NCBI GenBank assembly: GCA_000092065.1
Contig: CP000600.1
Source: Ostreococcus lucimarinus
Lineage: Eukaryota
Length of the DNA: 64,000 nt
Reading direction: 5' to 3' (one strand)
Shown here: positions 171-3,515 of the stretch, piece by piece
Layout: every line of letters begins with the position of its first letter
Numbering within the stretch: position 1 is the first letter of the stretch
The notes under the pieces: generated by a model
Database searches by the model: none
What the model was told of the DNA's origin: nothing
The model's input: only the letters and a program-made list of their open reading frames with translations
Position numbers and translations under genes: made by a program

Positions 171-1547
171 ATGTCTCGAGATGATCGAGATTTGAATTCG
201 TCGCGCGCGAACCGCGCGTTGCGCGCGCGTGAGGAGGCGGTCGTGAAACGTTGGAAGTCGCCGGATCGCGCGCCGCCGGCGCGCGCGGCGGCGGCGCTTC
301 GAACGCTGCGACCGATCCCGTTTCGCCCGTTCGGCGCGATGTCGTTTTGCGATAAGGCATTCTCGTGCGCGTGGCTCGCGGATGATCTGGCGTTGATCGG
401 GACGAAGGATAATCGGTTGTTTGAGTTGGAGATCGATCGACGAGGGCGTCGAGACGCGTGGCGCGAGATCGAACTCGGAAGGGAGGACGCGTACACGAGG
501 AACCGGGCGATGGAGATCGCCGCGCAATGGGTGAGCCGACACACGCCGCAGGCGTTACGAGCGATCAACGTTTCTCCGCCGTTCTTGGCCGGTCCCTATG
601 GGCACGGCGCGGTTCGCGCCGCCGCTTCGAGACGGGGCGGCGCCCACGCGTGTTCGGTGAGCTCGACTCGAGAGCACATCGTGTGTAGCGGTGGTCCATC
701 ACACAACATCGTTGGGTTCCGTCGAGACGAGGAGACGGAATGTCTCGTGCCTAGAATGGCATTTTCTGGGCACGACGACGTCGTGTTCGACGTTGGCTTC
801 ATCGGACGAGACGCGATGGCGTCGGCGTCGCGCGACTGCACGGTGAAAGTCTGGCAGCTTCCTAAGAGTCCTAGCTACGACGAGATAAGAATCACTCCAA
901 GTGGTTCGGTGCACCCGATCGGAGAGTGCACGCAGAACGAACGCGTGCGTGGCGTCAAGGTTGTTGATCGATGTCCCGCTCGTCATCTTGCGACGTGCAC
1001 GTCGAGCGGACACGTACTTCAGCTCGACGCAGAGACGCTTTCGCTCGTACACAGTGGATATCAGTGTCGAGGATATCTCGAAACTTGCTGCCTCGCCACC
1101 GATGGCCAAATCGTCGCCGTCGGTTCTCGCACGCACATTGGTTTCGTGGACTTTCGATCAAAAAACTTTTACGCCTCCGTAGCGCTACCATACGGCGATA
1201 CCAACAGCACGCGCAGTCTTAGTTTCCATGAGGGCGGCAATCTACTCACAATTGGCGGCGGTCGAGGATTGATTTCGTTTTACGACGTTCGCATGCGAAA
1301 ATATCTCGTCGATAACGGTCGAGGTCGGGTGCGCCAGCTCTTCAACAACCAATATTGCGTCCCCTTTGCAGACAACGGGATCTTCGAGGATGAGCACGAT
1401 GACGACTTTTACGACATTGAGATTCGCGATTACTGTTTGCCAGCAATCTTTGCGCATCAGTGGGACCCGAGTGGAACACGTTTGCTCTGCGCCGGTGGGC
1501 CGCTTCAGTCGATGCTACACGGCTTCTTTGTGGGCGTGTGGAGTTAG
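171..1547 (+). CDS. DCAF12: DCAF12-like WD40-repeat protein (DDB1/CUL4-associated factor 12 homologue). Start is ambiguous: ATG at 171 or at ~339.
   Basis: ORF 66..1547 (ttg at 66, so not a true start). C-terminus 'HQWDPSGTRLLCAGGPLQSMLHGFFVGVWS' matches the DCAF12 C-terminal signature '[26 protein letters not shown]'. 'GLISFYDVRMRKYL' matches 'SLLFYDIRAQRFL'. N-terminal 'FSCAWLADDLALIGTKDNRLFELEI' matches '[25 protein letters not shown]'. WD repeat 'SRDCTVKVWQL'. Confidence 0.6.
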   Translation: MSRDDRDLNSSRANRALRAREEAVVKRWKSPDRAPPARAAAALRTLRPIPFRPFGAMSFCDKAFSCAWLADDLALIGTKDNRLFELEIDRRGRRDAWREIELGREDAYTRNRAMEIAAQWVSRHTPQALRAINVSPPFLAGPYGHGAVRAAASRRGGAHACSVSSTREHIVCSGGPSHNIVGFRRDEETECLVPRMAFSGHDDVVFDVGFIGRDAMASASRDCTVKVWQLPKSPSYDEIRITPSGSVHPIGECTQNERVRGVKVVDRCPARHLATCTSSGHVLQLDAETLSLVHSGYQCRGYLETCCLATDGQIVAVGSRTHIGFVDFRSKNFYASVALPYGDTNSTRSLSFHEGGNLLTIGGGRGLISFYDVRMRKYLVDNGRGRVRQLFNNQYCVPFADNGIFEDEHDDDFYDIEIRDYCLPAIFAHQWDPSGTRLLCAGGPLQSMLHGFFVGVWS

Positions 1548-1566
1548 TTGCTCCAGATGTCGACGC

Positions 1567-2271
1567 ATGTCGTCCCGACGGCACGCCATCTCACCCGTGC
1601 GGCGTAATGGAGATCAGGCGACGTCTCGAACCGCGGTCGGCTCGAGCGAATCGACGTCGTGCCCCGTGTGCGGCGTCGACTTGAATGGTGTCTCGTTCGA
1701 TGCGCGCTCGCGCCACGCAGCCACGTGCGCCGAGACGCTCTCACAGCTCGACCACGTCACGCAAGAGGACGGCAACGACGAATTTGACGATGATTTGATC
1801 GCGCTCGTGGACGAGATTGACCGGAAACGAGAGTTGGAAGCGGCGAAAAAGGCGTCTCGAGCCACAACGTCGGGCTCAGCGTCGGCGATTCAGGATGGAG
1901 AAACCGTCGAGCGTTGGCTCCATCGCATTGGTTACGCGCCGTACTACCATCCTTTGTACGTCAAGGAAGAATTGCTCGACGTAGAAATCGCAAAGGAGTG
2001 TTCAGCGATGGATTTGATGTCCGTTGGCGTTGACGCAGAAGATGCAAGAGCGTTGGCGCACTGCGGCGGCGCGCCGCCGGACACCATCGCGAACGTCCCA
2101 CAAACGACAACCGTCCCGCGCACGCGATCAGCGATGCAACGTGCACGCGAAATCGCGGTCGCGAACGACGATTCGCTGTGGGCTGTCGCTCGTGGCGCCG
2201 AAAATCGCGGCCGCGGCGAGTCGCTCCCTTCCATCGAACGCTTCACGCGCGCGAAAACGACAGAGCGTTGA
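1567..2271 (+). CDS. UBZ4 (Rad18-type C2HC) zinc-finger protein with a C-terminal SAM domain.
   Basis: In-frame ATG at 1567 inside ORF 1366..2271. 'CPVCGVDLNGVSFDARSRHAATC' fits a C-x2-C-x13-H-x3-C UBZ4 pattern. 'VERWLHRIGYAPYYHPLYVKEELLDVEIAKECSAMDLMSVGVDAEDARALAHC' fits a SAM-domain pattern (WL..IGL..Y...F...EID...L..L...DL..LGI). The start is only 20 bp downstream of the DCAF12 stop. Confidence 0.45.
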   Translation: MSSRRHAISPVRRNGDQATSRTAVGSSESTSCPVCGVDLNGVSFDARSRHAATCAETLSQLDHVTQEDGNDEFDDDLIALVDEIDRKRELEAAKKASRATTSGSASAIQDGETVERWLHRIGYAPYYHPLYVKEELLDVEIAKECSAMDLMSVGVDAEDARALAHCGGAPPDTIANVPQTTTVPRTRSAMQRAREIAVANDDSLWAVARGAENRGRGESLPSIERFTRAKTTER

Positions 2272-2428: not shown

Positions 2429-3515
2429 ATGGCGGACGCTATGCGTGCCATGCTCGATCAGCTCATGGGCACCGAGCGCGACGTCCCTCTCGATCAACGC
2501 ACCGGCCGTTCGAGGCATTACTCGGTGCGTGCGACGCCGCGCGACCGTTGTCCCGCTCTCTTTCTGAAGATTTCTCAAGCCTTCAGTGACTGACTTTTCC
2601 GCGTGGTTCTCGACTCAGGACGCGGACGTGTGCAAATACTACATCTGTGGGTTCGACGTGACGTGTTTCAAGAACACAAAGTCCGACGCGGACGTCCTGC
2701 GGTGCGTGGGAGCGGAGGCGCAGGAAAAAGTTCGGGACGACGGCGCGCGAGAGGCGTTTCGACTCGCGCCCGAGGCTGAAAAGGCGAAATGTGGGTACGA
2801 AATGGACACGAAGATGGTGTTAGATCGGATGATTCGCGAGTGCGATCGGAGGATCGAGCGCGGGATGGTGCGAGCGAGGGCGGAGAAGGAGGAGGCGATG
2901 GTCAAGATGGCGACGAGCGCCGACGCTGATACGTTGAGGTTGTTAGAGGTGAAGATGGAGGAAAGCGCAGCGAAGGCGGAGAAATTGGGCGAGGAAGGCG
3001 ACGTCGACGGCGCCGAGGCAGAGTTGGCGCATTTAGAGACGTTTGAGCAGCGCGCGAAAGAGGTTAAGGCGAAGATGGATAGTATGGACGCGTATCGATT
3101 GACCGAGCCGTGTCCGGTGAGCGGGACGTTGTTGTGCAACACCGACACCGAGGAGCGTCGACAAGAGCATTTGATGGGTAAACAATACACTGGATGGACC
3201 CACATTCGTAAACTGCGCGACGAGCTCGCGGCGCGGTTGGCCAAGTACGAAGAGGCGGGATTCGCCATCGGTGGGCGGAGCGGCGGCGACGGGCGCGACA
3301 GAAAGCGCCGATCGCGTTCGCCCGATCGCGATCGCTCGTACAGACCGCGCGATAATCGCGACCGTGAATACGGGCGCGGTGATAGAGATACGTACCGAGG
3401 GGGTGGTGATAGGAGGTACGAGCCGTACCGCGACGACCGACGCCGGGGCGACGATCGACGTTCGTATGATCGCAGAGACGACAGGCGTAGGGACGATCGA
3501 TATAGATACTACTAA
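2429..3515 (+). CDS. LUC7: LUC7-like U1 snRNP protein; two exons, join(2429..2524, 2619..3515).
   Basis: Exon 1 'MADAMRAMLDQLMGTERDVPLDQRTGRSRHYS' matches the LUC7 N-terminus 'MDAxRAxLDxLMG'. A GTGCGT donor sits at 2525 and a ...gtgactgac...ctcag acceptor ends at 2618. Exon 2 continues 'DADVCKYYICGFDVTCFKNTKSDADVLRC', matching the LUC7 'CxFYxxxFCPHDLFxNTKSDLGPC' zinc-finger region. RS/RD-rich C-terminal tail. Confidence 0.8.
2525..2618 (+). other. Spliceosomal intron (94 nt) in LUC7.
   Basis: GTGCGT donor, 'gtgactgac' branch point 24 nt upstream of a CAG acceptor. Splicing restores a contiguous LUC7 N-terminus. Confidence 0.75.

Follow-up and report, generated by a model that had tools for sequence, protein, structure and literature searches.

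Human DCAF12 reads the C-terminal carboxylate and the di-Glu side chains of its targets through a basic pocket made up of K91, K108, H144, R203, K254, R256 and R344, and alanine mutants of K108, H144, R256 and R344 abolish the binding of CCT5 (PMC9929631). The protein has been described as 'conserved across metazoans' (PMC9929631) and a review scores it as absent from plants, yeasts and trypanosomes (PMC11763709). Nuclear polycistronic mRNAs are widespread in green algae, including Chlamydomonas, Chromochloris and Auxenochlorella, where the distances between open reading frames (ORFs) can be below 100 nucleotides (nt) and the ORFs can even overlap. These loci carry short ORFs, with medians of ~400-900 nt, a weak start context on the first ORF and a depletion of ATGs ahead of the second, consistent with leaky scanning (PMC7896298, PMC11291117). 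The genomes of Ostreococcus are compact; intergenic regions in O. tauri average <200 bp, overlapping genes occur in the genus, and the expressed sequence tag (EST) clusters of O. lucimarinus average 1358 nt compared with 1059 nt for the longest ORFs within them (PMC2367439). Here we describe a locus in a 64-kb stretch of the Ostreococcus lucimarinus CCE9901 genome (the window, to whose positions all coordinates refer), in which a gene that we identify by homology as a DCAF12 orthologue (ORF1) is followed on the same strand by a gene for a protein with a predicted UBZ4-type zinc finger and a divergent SAM domain (ORF2). We are close to certain that these are two separate nuclear genes arranged head-to-tail, and we favour, with moderate confidence, the view that they are transcribed as overlapping monocistronic units.

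Two genes separated by 19 nt

The initial annotation of this locus had placed ORF2 20 nt behind ORF1 on the same strand. The tight packing was read correctly, and the exact length of the spacer is 19 nt (Table 1). ORF1 and ORF2 are both real genes, under purifying selection in each annotated frame. Relative to L008, a metagenome contig from a relative of 94% identity, 35 of the 43 substitutions in ORF1 and 22 of the 31 in ORF2 fall at third codon positions, and both proteins are conserved over several Ostreococcus clades.

Table 1. Features of the DCAF12/UBZ4-SAM locus in the O. lucimarinus window.
Feature	Position	Strand	Description
DCAF12 orthologue coding sequence (ORF1)	171..1547	+	458 aa, 1377 nt; ATG 171, stop TAG 1545-1547; WD40 beta-propeller, predicted CRL4-type receptor
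3' part of DCAF12 coding sequence plus spacer	1390..1566	+	upstream of the ORF2 ATG on the RNA-derived MMETSP contig; candidate ORF2 5' untranslated region/promoter or DCAF12 mRNA overlap
Spacer, ORF1 stop to ORF2 start	1548..1566	+	19 nt, direct sequence reading; out-of-frame ATG at 1557
UBZ4-SAM protein coding sequence (ORF2)	1567..2271	+	234 aa, stop TGA 2269-2271
Predicted C2HC zinc finger, UBZ4 (RAD18) type	1660..1728	+	C32-x2-C35-x14-H50-x3-C54
Predicted divergent SAM domain	1900..2064	+	residues ~112-166 of ORF2; sub-threshold Pfam SAM_1 match, family-profile matches
C-terminal linear motif	2173..2229	+	'SLWAVARGAENRGRGESLP' (LWxVAxG ... RGRGESLP); genus-wide conservation

An exact-sequence look-up of ORF2 returned XP_001422594.1, ABP00911.1 and UniRef100_A4SBC9, labelled 'predicted protein / SAM domain-containing protein', so the gene is annotated on its own. 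Near variants of ORF1 carry JGI labels reading 'WD repeat-containing protein 40A', the former name of DCAF12, and for these variants JGI uses a 493-aa model with a TTG start, beginning at window position 66. Among the 40 of 177 cluster members listed, the exact 458-aa DCAF12 sequence occurs in the Logan and ENA assemblies only and not in NCBI or UniRef, in both of which ORF2 has accessions. It is possible that the DCAF12 gene is modelled otherwise, or is missing, in the GenBank annotation of O. lucimarinus.

The GC content at third codon positions is 0.65 in DCAF12 and 0.69 in ORF2, compared with 0.73-0.77 in the adjacent genes, and the codon-usage score of DCAF12 is 32.9 over 458 aa, against 98 in a neighbour of 487 aa. 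Because codon bias is weaker than in the neighbours, low expression of both DCAF12 and ORF2 is suggested.

ORF1 as a DCAF12 orthologue

The Pfam model PF23760 (Beta-prop_DCAF12) matches ORF1 with 83.2 bits, against a cut-off of 27, and the remaining propeller models stay far under their own cut-offs. The best match in the PDB is human DCAF12 (8t9a_B, 8ajm_B), with an E-value of 9e-23 for the single sequence (next WD40 protein, 6.6e-8); against a 10-sequence algal profile human DCAF12 reaches 5.9e-38 (next WD40 protein, 4.3e-19). The alignment of ORF1 with human DCAF12 extends to the final residue of both proteins, ORF1 ending in '...GGPLQSMLHGFFVGVWS', and blade 1 aligns separately with an independent E-value of 0.0043, the mapping of the blade-1 pocket residues being significant with the profile only. 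A word-indexed homologue search with ORF1, which covers close relatives, returned 17 of these, and homologues at 44-53% identity have 90-odd invariant positions in common. A scan of the ORF1 and ORF2 proteins against NCBIfam gave no matches. By its Pfam match, its top PDB match and a pocket that is mostly kept, ORF1 is a DCAF12 orthologue, as the initial annotation had proposed from the letters of the sequence. The C-terminal signature that it had called strikingly conserved does match the C-terminus of the human protein.

We mapped the published list of pocket residues (PMC9929631) onto ORF1. Between chain 8t9a_B and the human numbering there is an offset of +18, which is fixed by H144, W186, F188, R203, K254, R256, E298, V300, R344, Y422, P439 and P441. 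Ten residues are kept, namely human K91, F93, K108, H144, F188, R203, R256, E298, R344 and P439, which correspond to K62, F64, K79, H159, F206, R221, R260, E304, R348 and P444 of ORF1, respectively. Two more change conservatively (K254 to R258 and Y422 to F427) and three are not kept, W186 being replaced by V, V300 by C and P441 by Q. Nine of the ten kept residues are invariant among 10 algal homologues and H159 is present in >=90% of them. The counterparts of K108, H144, R256 and R344, the residues at which mutation abolishes CCT5 binding, are all retained in ORF1 and vary little or not at all among the algal homologues.

Since the basic pocket is kept, recognition of C-terminal -Glu-Glu (-EE) degrons by ORF1 is likely, and the protein is most likely a CRL4 (CUL4-DDB1) substrate receptor for degrons of this type, an activity that we infer from the conservation of the pocket. 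Weighing against this assignment, neither the single sequence nor the profile gave an alignment ahead of blade 1, and the helix-loop-helix with which DCAF12 binds DDB1 was not detected by sequence. The N-terminal 56 residues of ORF1 are basic and Ala-rich and could be helical. A green-algal DCAF12 is notable because the literature describes the protein as metazoan and absent from plants; the initial annotation had made the same remark, and the two papers agree with it (PMC9929631, PMC11763709).

ORF2 and the UBZ4-SAM family

ORF2 has 16 close homologues, and several other Ostreococcus-like lineages contain homologues with identities of 42-61%. Common to the family are an invariant Met1, a start reading 'MS[SA]RRxAISP', the four zinc ligands, a SAM-like core and the C-terminal 'LWxVAxG...RGRGESLP'. 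The finger ligands C32, C35, H50 and C54 are invariant across the family, and AlphaFold models this region as a beta-beta-alpha finger of two short strands and a helix, with a predicted local distance difference test (pLDDT) score of 77-82. Pfam found no UBZ match in the single ORF2 sequence, returning only a sub-threshold zf-C2H2_9. The RAD18 UBZ was the only zinc-finger PDB match of a 9-sequence whole-protein profile, with a weak E-value of 0.15-0.29. With a finger-only profile the RAD18 UBZ gave E-values of 0.009-0.024 and was the sole match to extend over the His-x3-Cys half as well as the Cys knuckle; the C2H2 matches that score higher with this profile cover 'CPxCG' alone.

For the SAM domain, weak SAM_1 matches are found in 8 of 9 genus members. 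The ORF2 family profile (9 sequences) matches the solved SAM domains of SHIP2/EphA2 (E-value 3.8e-4) and Caskin (4e-3), and it also matches proteins in which the aligned region is a Pfam SAM_1 domain at E-values of 1e-15 to 1e-18. W117, L118, G122, E134, D149, G154, V155 and L163 are common to ORF2 and the canonical SAM domains of the Chloropicon family. The UBZ4 and SAM calls appear right but statistically modest, weakest for UBZ4, and are seen at the level of the family profile only. The profile search thus upholds the domain types given by the initial annotation, a Rad18-type C2HC finger and a SAM domain, and neither reaches the Pfam threshold as a single sequence.

The C-terminal motif has the genus-wide invariants L204, W205, V207, A208, G210 and R214-P221, and its kin are 'SRLWAVAGHGGRDRPLP' among the Micromonas-like proteins and, at the very end of the Chloropicon-type ones, 'KSLW[NS]YAGE'. 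A HMMER scan of 1.84 billion representative proteins with the ORF2 profile gave 28 matches, which outside the genus form three groups. In the Micromonas-like proteins P0075 and P0085 the finger and the SAM domain are both covered, and a related C-terminal motif is present. The Chloropicon primus family (P0071 and relatives) has 2-3 fingers, a canonical SAM domain and a terminal 'SLW[NS]YAGE'. The third group consists of plant-type DRMBL (SNM1/PSO2-like) proteins, of which P0087 and P0084 open with one to three fingers followed by a SAM domain, and P0079 combines a finger with DRMBL. The finger pattern C-P-x-C-x14-H-x3-C is common to all three groups. Judged from these matches, UBZ4 plus SAM is a known architecture, the N-terminal head of plant SNM1-type nucleases, which here stands alone; the initial annotation had stated that it did not know this architecture from named proteins, and on this point it is superseded. 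Our literature search found no paper joining UBZ4, SAM and Arabidopsis, and nothing useful for At2g45700.

ORF2 is most likely a small adaptor in which a single UBZ4-type finger and an acidic coiled linker precede a divergent SAM domain and a conserved C-terminal peptide motif. By analogy with the UBZ4-SAM head of plant SNM1-type nucleases it probably acts at ubiquitin-marked chromatin in the handling of DNA damage, with the SAM domain presumably oligomerising and partners docking at the C-terminal motif. Several observations weigh against this functional assignment. The Pfam SAM_1 match of ORF2 reaches 17.1 bits (E-value 0.007), under the cut-off of 23. The SAM region is also poorly modelled by AlphaFold, as five short helices (114-165) with a pLDDT of 48-71. 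Two AlphaFold runs, with 9 and 15 sequences, gave a mean pLDDT of 52-57, and because the models stayed at this level the top Foldseek matches in the PDB, the SAM domains of EphB2, Caskin and p63, have E-values >=0.9 and are non-significant. Finally, O. lucimarinus has Ala in place of the Asp/Asn that stands at the second position ahead of the last Cys (RHAATC, residues 49-54, window 1711-1728). Most relatives read H-A-D-x-C or H-V-N-x-C at this place, and the P0010/P0011 clade reads H-A-R-G-C. We take this position in UBZ4 to be the ubiquitin-contacting Asp that is needed for binding (RAD18 D221, WRNIP1 D37). The change from Asp to Ala makes ubiquitin binding by O. lucimarinus ORF2 doubtful, and some Ostreococcus lineages may have lost this binding or changed it.

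We considered ORF2 as a substrate of DCAF12 and rejected the idea, as no homologue in the genus ends in -EE. Near its N-terminus, residues 9-13 of ORF2 read SPVRR (window 1591-1605), and S9, P10 and R13 are invariant in the genus, giving S-P-x-[R/K/H]-R. The full consensus site of cyclin-dependent kinases (CDKs) is S/T-P-x-K/R, and the match of SPVRR to it hints at cell-cycle regulation. The Chloropicon-type proteins P0068, P0069, P0071, P0078 and P0088 (L010/L011 6001-6996) carry, after the SAM domain, an 'NNRRITQ[FY][YML]' stretch followed by basic residues. This stretch resembles a PIP box or PIP degron. The same proteins have the invariant end '...KSLW[NS]YAGE-COOH', of which the Ostreococcus proteins retain the LWxxAxG part only.

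Conservation of the locus and history of the spacer

All of the Ostreococcus-like contigs that we examined preserve the gene order AA-kinase / rhodanese(-) / Rad4(-) / DCAF12(+) / UBZ4-SAM(+) / LUC7(+) / GT22(-) / neurochondrin(+). Outside the genus, in Chloropicon primus and in a Micromonas-like contig, the genes that flank UBZ4-SAM are unrelated ones, and DCAF12 is not among them. Because the two genes are unlinked in these relatives, their adjacency represents genus-level collinearity and not evidence of a functional pair. The comparison of orthologous synteny, which the initial annotation had put forward as a check, therefore gives a divided answer, with the pair collinear across Ostreococcus clades and separated outside them.

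The spacer between DCAF12 and ORF2 varies in length, from 19 nt in the window and 23 nt in L008 to 75 nt in L005, 88 nt in L009, 92 nt in L017, ~100 nt in L013, 121 nt in L014 and ~127 nt in L001. The frame of ORF2 relative to DCAF12 also varies, being +1 in the window, 0 in L005, +2 in L017 and +1 in L014. Compared with L005, the window lacks ~56 nt directly after the DCAF12 stop and retains ~16 nt ahead of the ORF2 ATG (ctccagatgKYgacgc), a sequence also present in L008 and L005 and, less strictly conserved, in L017. This comparison suggests that the O. lucimarinus lineage would have deleted the non-conserved part of a spacer that measures 75-127 nt in sister clades, leaving the ~16 nt and the ORF2 start in the present arrangement of 19 nt. 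The ATG at 1557, 10 nt before the ORF2 start, opens a 16-codon out-of-frame ORF (1557-1607) that runs across this start and is kept in L008, L005 and L017. It may be a small regulatory upstream ORF, or part of the core promoter or 5' leader.

Close relatives also differ within DCAF12. At 614-662, L008 contains a 49-nt AT-rich GT...AG insertion (GTATGAATGCG...AAAATCAG) in this gene, ~14 codons before the stop (window ~1510/1511), which is absent from O. lucimarinus CCE9901. The aligned sequences suggest a polymorphic intron, present in one and absent from the other of two very close lineages. L008, L009, L019 and L020 are short JGI/ENA contigs that are genomic or uninformative on transcripts; L008 retains the intron, and the gene calls for L019 divide LUC7 in two, as would fit an intron retained there.

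Further out, the relatives L001, L005 and L017 have a Rad4/XPC homologue in divergent orientation upstream of DCAF12, 240-390 nt away, a region that would fall beyond the 5' end of the window. In relatives the distance from the Rad4 stop to the rhodanese start on the same strand is 33-64 nt, so that the neighbourhood holds a second very short spacer of this kind. Next downstream in the window is a LUC7 homologue (2429-3515, + strand), which starts 157 nt past the ORF2 stop. Its exon 1 (2429-2524, MADAMRAMLDQLMGTERDVPL...HYS) is followed by a 94-nt GT..AG intron (2525-2618) and by exon 2 from 2619 (DADVCKYYICGFD...).

Transcription of the gene pair

The spacer has to be seen against the packing of genes in this genome. 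Across the window, 18 pairs of same-strand genes have spacers between coding sequences of 44, 53, 77, 80, 83, 96, 105 nt and up, with a median of 138 nt, values that are lower bounds as they come from a crude codon-usage gene model in which the first ATG was taken. Spacers of 44-105 nt make up 7 of the 18, and convergent genes have a median of 77 nt. Because the EST clusters exceed the ORFs in length and intergenic regions are short, untranslated regions (UTRs) must routinely be longer than the intergenic space. The 19 nt found here is the short tail of a normal spacer distribution, and the arrangement is extreme yet ordinary for the compact Ostreococcus genome. The initial annotation had argued that such a spacer leaves no room for a promoter, which is right in that 19 nt cannot hold one. 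The special status that this seemed to confer on the pair is not borne out, given how common same-strand spacers of 44-105 nt are in the window.

We infer that DCAF12 and ORF2 are overlapping monocistronic transcription units, a reading that we hold to be reasonably probable. The ORF2 promoter, and probably also its transcription start site, would lie near the 3' end of the DCAF12 coding sequence, in its final few hundred bases, and the 3' UTR and poly(A) site of the DCAF12 mRNA would lie inside ORF2. Embedded signals of this kind would be the usual solution where intergenic spacers are shorter than UTRs. We have no indication that the products of DCAF12 and ORF2 work together.

RNA evidence comes from P0024 (MMETSP Transcript_7487, 293 aa, 'complete'), which equals the translation from the ATG at 1390, in the ORF2 frame, to 2271. 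The RNA-derived contig thus continues for 177 nt or more ahead of the ORF2 ATG, into the DCAF12 coding sequence, and covers at least 1390-2271. The TransDecoder label 'complete' is taken to imply an upstream in-frame stop; if it does, the contig would reach beyond the TGA at 1270. An exact-protein look-up of P0024 in the assemblies returned no contig.

Some of these results count against overlapping monocistronic units or fail to discriminate. The spacer of 19 nt is below every other same-strand spacer in the window. A search of 1200-2500 for TGTAA, AATAAA and TATA motifs gave no recognisable promoter or poly(A) motif. The MMETSP contig is just as compatible with transcription that starts within DCAF12 as with read-through or bicistronic RNA, or with overlapping transcripts merged by the assembler. 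In addition, the stretch 1537-1604 (the spacer and the first 38 nt of ORF2) has no substitution relative to L008, where ~3.5 would be expected, although this is suggestive only, as substitution-free stretches of like length occur elsewhere and the result is not significant.

The alternative that survives best, which we nevertheless regard as unlikely, is a true bicistronic mRNA, that is, one capped transcript with both ORFs from which ORF2 would be translated by leaky scanning or by termination-reinitiation over the 19 nt. Polycistronic mRNAs with short or overlapping inter-ORF distances are common in green algae (PMC7896298, PMC11291117), and a spacer too short for a promoter, an RNA-derived contig that spans the interior of DCAF12 into ORF2, the collinearity of the pair through the genus and the substitution-free junction with L008 would all agree with such a transcript. 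However, the features of translation point elsewhere. ORF1, with 1377 nt or 458 codons, is long beside the medians of ~400-900 nt in known algal polycistrons, and 17 ATGs lie between the two starts against 18.6 expected from composition, so that there is no depletion; several of them have a purine at -3, and the ATG at 1557 lies out of frame only 10 nt before the ORF2 start. With A at -3 ORF1 has the stronger start context, and ORF2, with C there, the weaker (26 of the 31 local genes carry a purine at -3); documented bicistrons show the opposite order. Eukaryotic ribosomes reinitiate poorly once they have translated a long ORF, and reinitiation after 458 codons would be unusual. Because sister clades have spacers of 75-127 nt of unrelated sequence, tight stop-start coupling is not ancestral. 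A weaker point is that the exact 458-aa DCAF12 has no MMETSP record among the 40 of 177 cluster members listed. The locus is without the signature of green-algal bicistrons and there is no sign of an operon.

A selected functional module is very unlikely. In such a module the receptor, on the writer side of ubiquitin signalling, and the UBZ4-SAM protein, on the reader side, would be kept adjacent and co-regulated in one pathway, possibly DNA repair. Rad4(-)/DCAF12(+)/UBZ4-SAM(+) is kept in all the Ostreococcus clades sampled, even where DCAF12 is only ~47-53% identical, both products plausibly touch ubiquitin, and Rad4/XPC lies directly upstream in relatives. Against this, the conserved block is far larger, reaching from AA-kinase to neurochondrin, as expected of general collinearity in the genus, the UBZ4-SAM gene has other neighbours in the Micromonas-like contig and in Chloropicon primus, and ORF2 has no terminal di-Glu degron. 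The initial annotation had noted that both products relate to ubiquitin; the linkage gives this theme no backing, as the adjacency belongs to a genus-wide syntenic block. The two preceding ideas can be combined, with DCAF12 and UBZ4-SAM dicistronic, termination-reinitiation following the 458-codon ORF, and a degron receptor thereby coupled to a ubiquitin-reader/SAM scaffold in one pathway beside Rad4/XPC. We consider this highly improbable; if true, termination-reinitiation would be a mechanism not described for green-algal polycistrons.

A single gene, with ORF2 joined to DCAF12 as a downstream exon, by read-through or by a frameshift to yield a DCAF12-UBZ4-SAM fusion, we reject with hardly any reservation, for although the shared strand, the 19-nt gap, an ORF2 frame open back to 1273 (TGA 1270) that overlaps the DCAF12 3' end, and introns close by (LUC7 2525-2618 and the L008 DCAF12) would permit it, DCAF12 ends exactly where human DCAF12 ends and its last residues are conserved, Met1 and the first 13 residues of ORF2 are conserved and the upstream translation is not, the relative frame varies between clades, and public annotation and gene callers on relatives give two genes. 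Of the three options raised by the initial annotation (co-transcription, a promoter embedded in the DCAF12 coding sequence, and a 3' exon of a longer gene) the last is excluded on the conserved Met1, the DCAF12 end and the varying frame, and the first finds no green-algal bicistron signature at this locus.

Comparison with known systems

The gene arrangement described here is ordinary for Ostreococcus, and both genes are already in public data. What appears new, in a small way, is a well-supported non-metazoan DCAF12 with an intact degron pocket, and the recognition of a putative UBZ4-SAM family of prasinophytes whose members share a conserved peptide motif at the C-terminus. The points made by DCAF12, the ORF2 family and the spacer are modest, and none of them changes current understanding.

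With human DCAF12 (WDR40A; 8AJM, 8T9A) ORF1 shares a seven-bladed propeller, collinear over its whole course between blade 1 and the final residue, as well as the basic pocket and the C-terminal 'GGPL..LHG..G(L/V)WS'. The two differ in that identity is only ~25-30%, the N-terminus cannot be aligned, the long loop between blades 6 and 7 is different and the host here is a green alga. A DCAF12 with an intact di-Glu pocket in Mamiellophyceae suggests that recognition of C-terminal -EE degrons by CRL4 is older than animals.

ORF2 shares with the head of the plant-type DRMBL proteins P0087 and P0084, which the ORF2 profile recovered directly, the finger C-P-x-C-x14-H-x3-C and a SAM domain in the same order. 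Unlike those proteins it is without the metallo-beta-lactamase/DRMBL nuclease domain and has its own LWxVAxG/RGRGESLP motif, and its SAM domain is divergent, with a 2-residue deletion ahead of the last helix; the profile matches to those proteins are marginal (E-values of 5e-4 to 1e-3). The Chloropicon primus P0071 family and the Micromonas-like P0075 and P0085 share with ORF2 the stand-alone UBZ4 and SAM domains and the C-terminal 'SLWxxAG'; on this likeness the Ostreococcus, Chloropicon and Micromonas-like proteins are probably one prasinophyte family. The Chloropicon forms differ in having 2-3 fingers, a canonical SAM domain (Pfam E-value ~1e-15), a PIP-box-like 'NNRRITQ[FY]x' and the end '...SLW[NS]YAGE', and in not lying beside DCAF12. 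The finger itself compares best with the RAD18 UBZ (2MRE, 5VF0), the only full-length zinc-finger PDB match, albeit with a weak E-value, with which it shares the C2HC ligands and the predicted beta-beta-alpha fold. The O. lucimarinus finger differs in being without the acidic residue before the last Cys and in having a loop of 14 residues from the second Cys to His, against what we take to be 11 residues in the RAD18 UBZ. A family of UBZ4, SAM and 'LWxxAxG' that looks like the detached head of a plant SNM1-type nuclease would allow a specific hypothesis about its function.

Green-algal polycistronic loci (Gallaher et al. 2021, PMC7896298; PMC11291117) share with this locus collinear same-strand ORFs, a very short gap and a chlorophyte host. 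Here, by contrast, ORF1 is long, the ATGs upstream of ORF2 are undepleted and the start context of ORF1 is the stronger one, and the locus is known from sequence. A further likeness is overlapping transcription in compacted eukaryotic genomes, in which, as would hold at this locus, neighbours share spacers shorter than their UTRs, and mRNAs start or end inside the adjacent gene; such transcription was reportedly described by Williams et al. in 2005 (cited in PMC2367439). In Ostreococcus, overlap is documented for convergent genes on opposite strands, whereas the pair described here lies on the same strand. A same-strand spacer of 19 nt would be well suited to the study of promoters and poly(A) sites that lie inside the coding sequence of a neighbour, in one of the most compact genomes of free-living eukaryotes.

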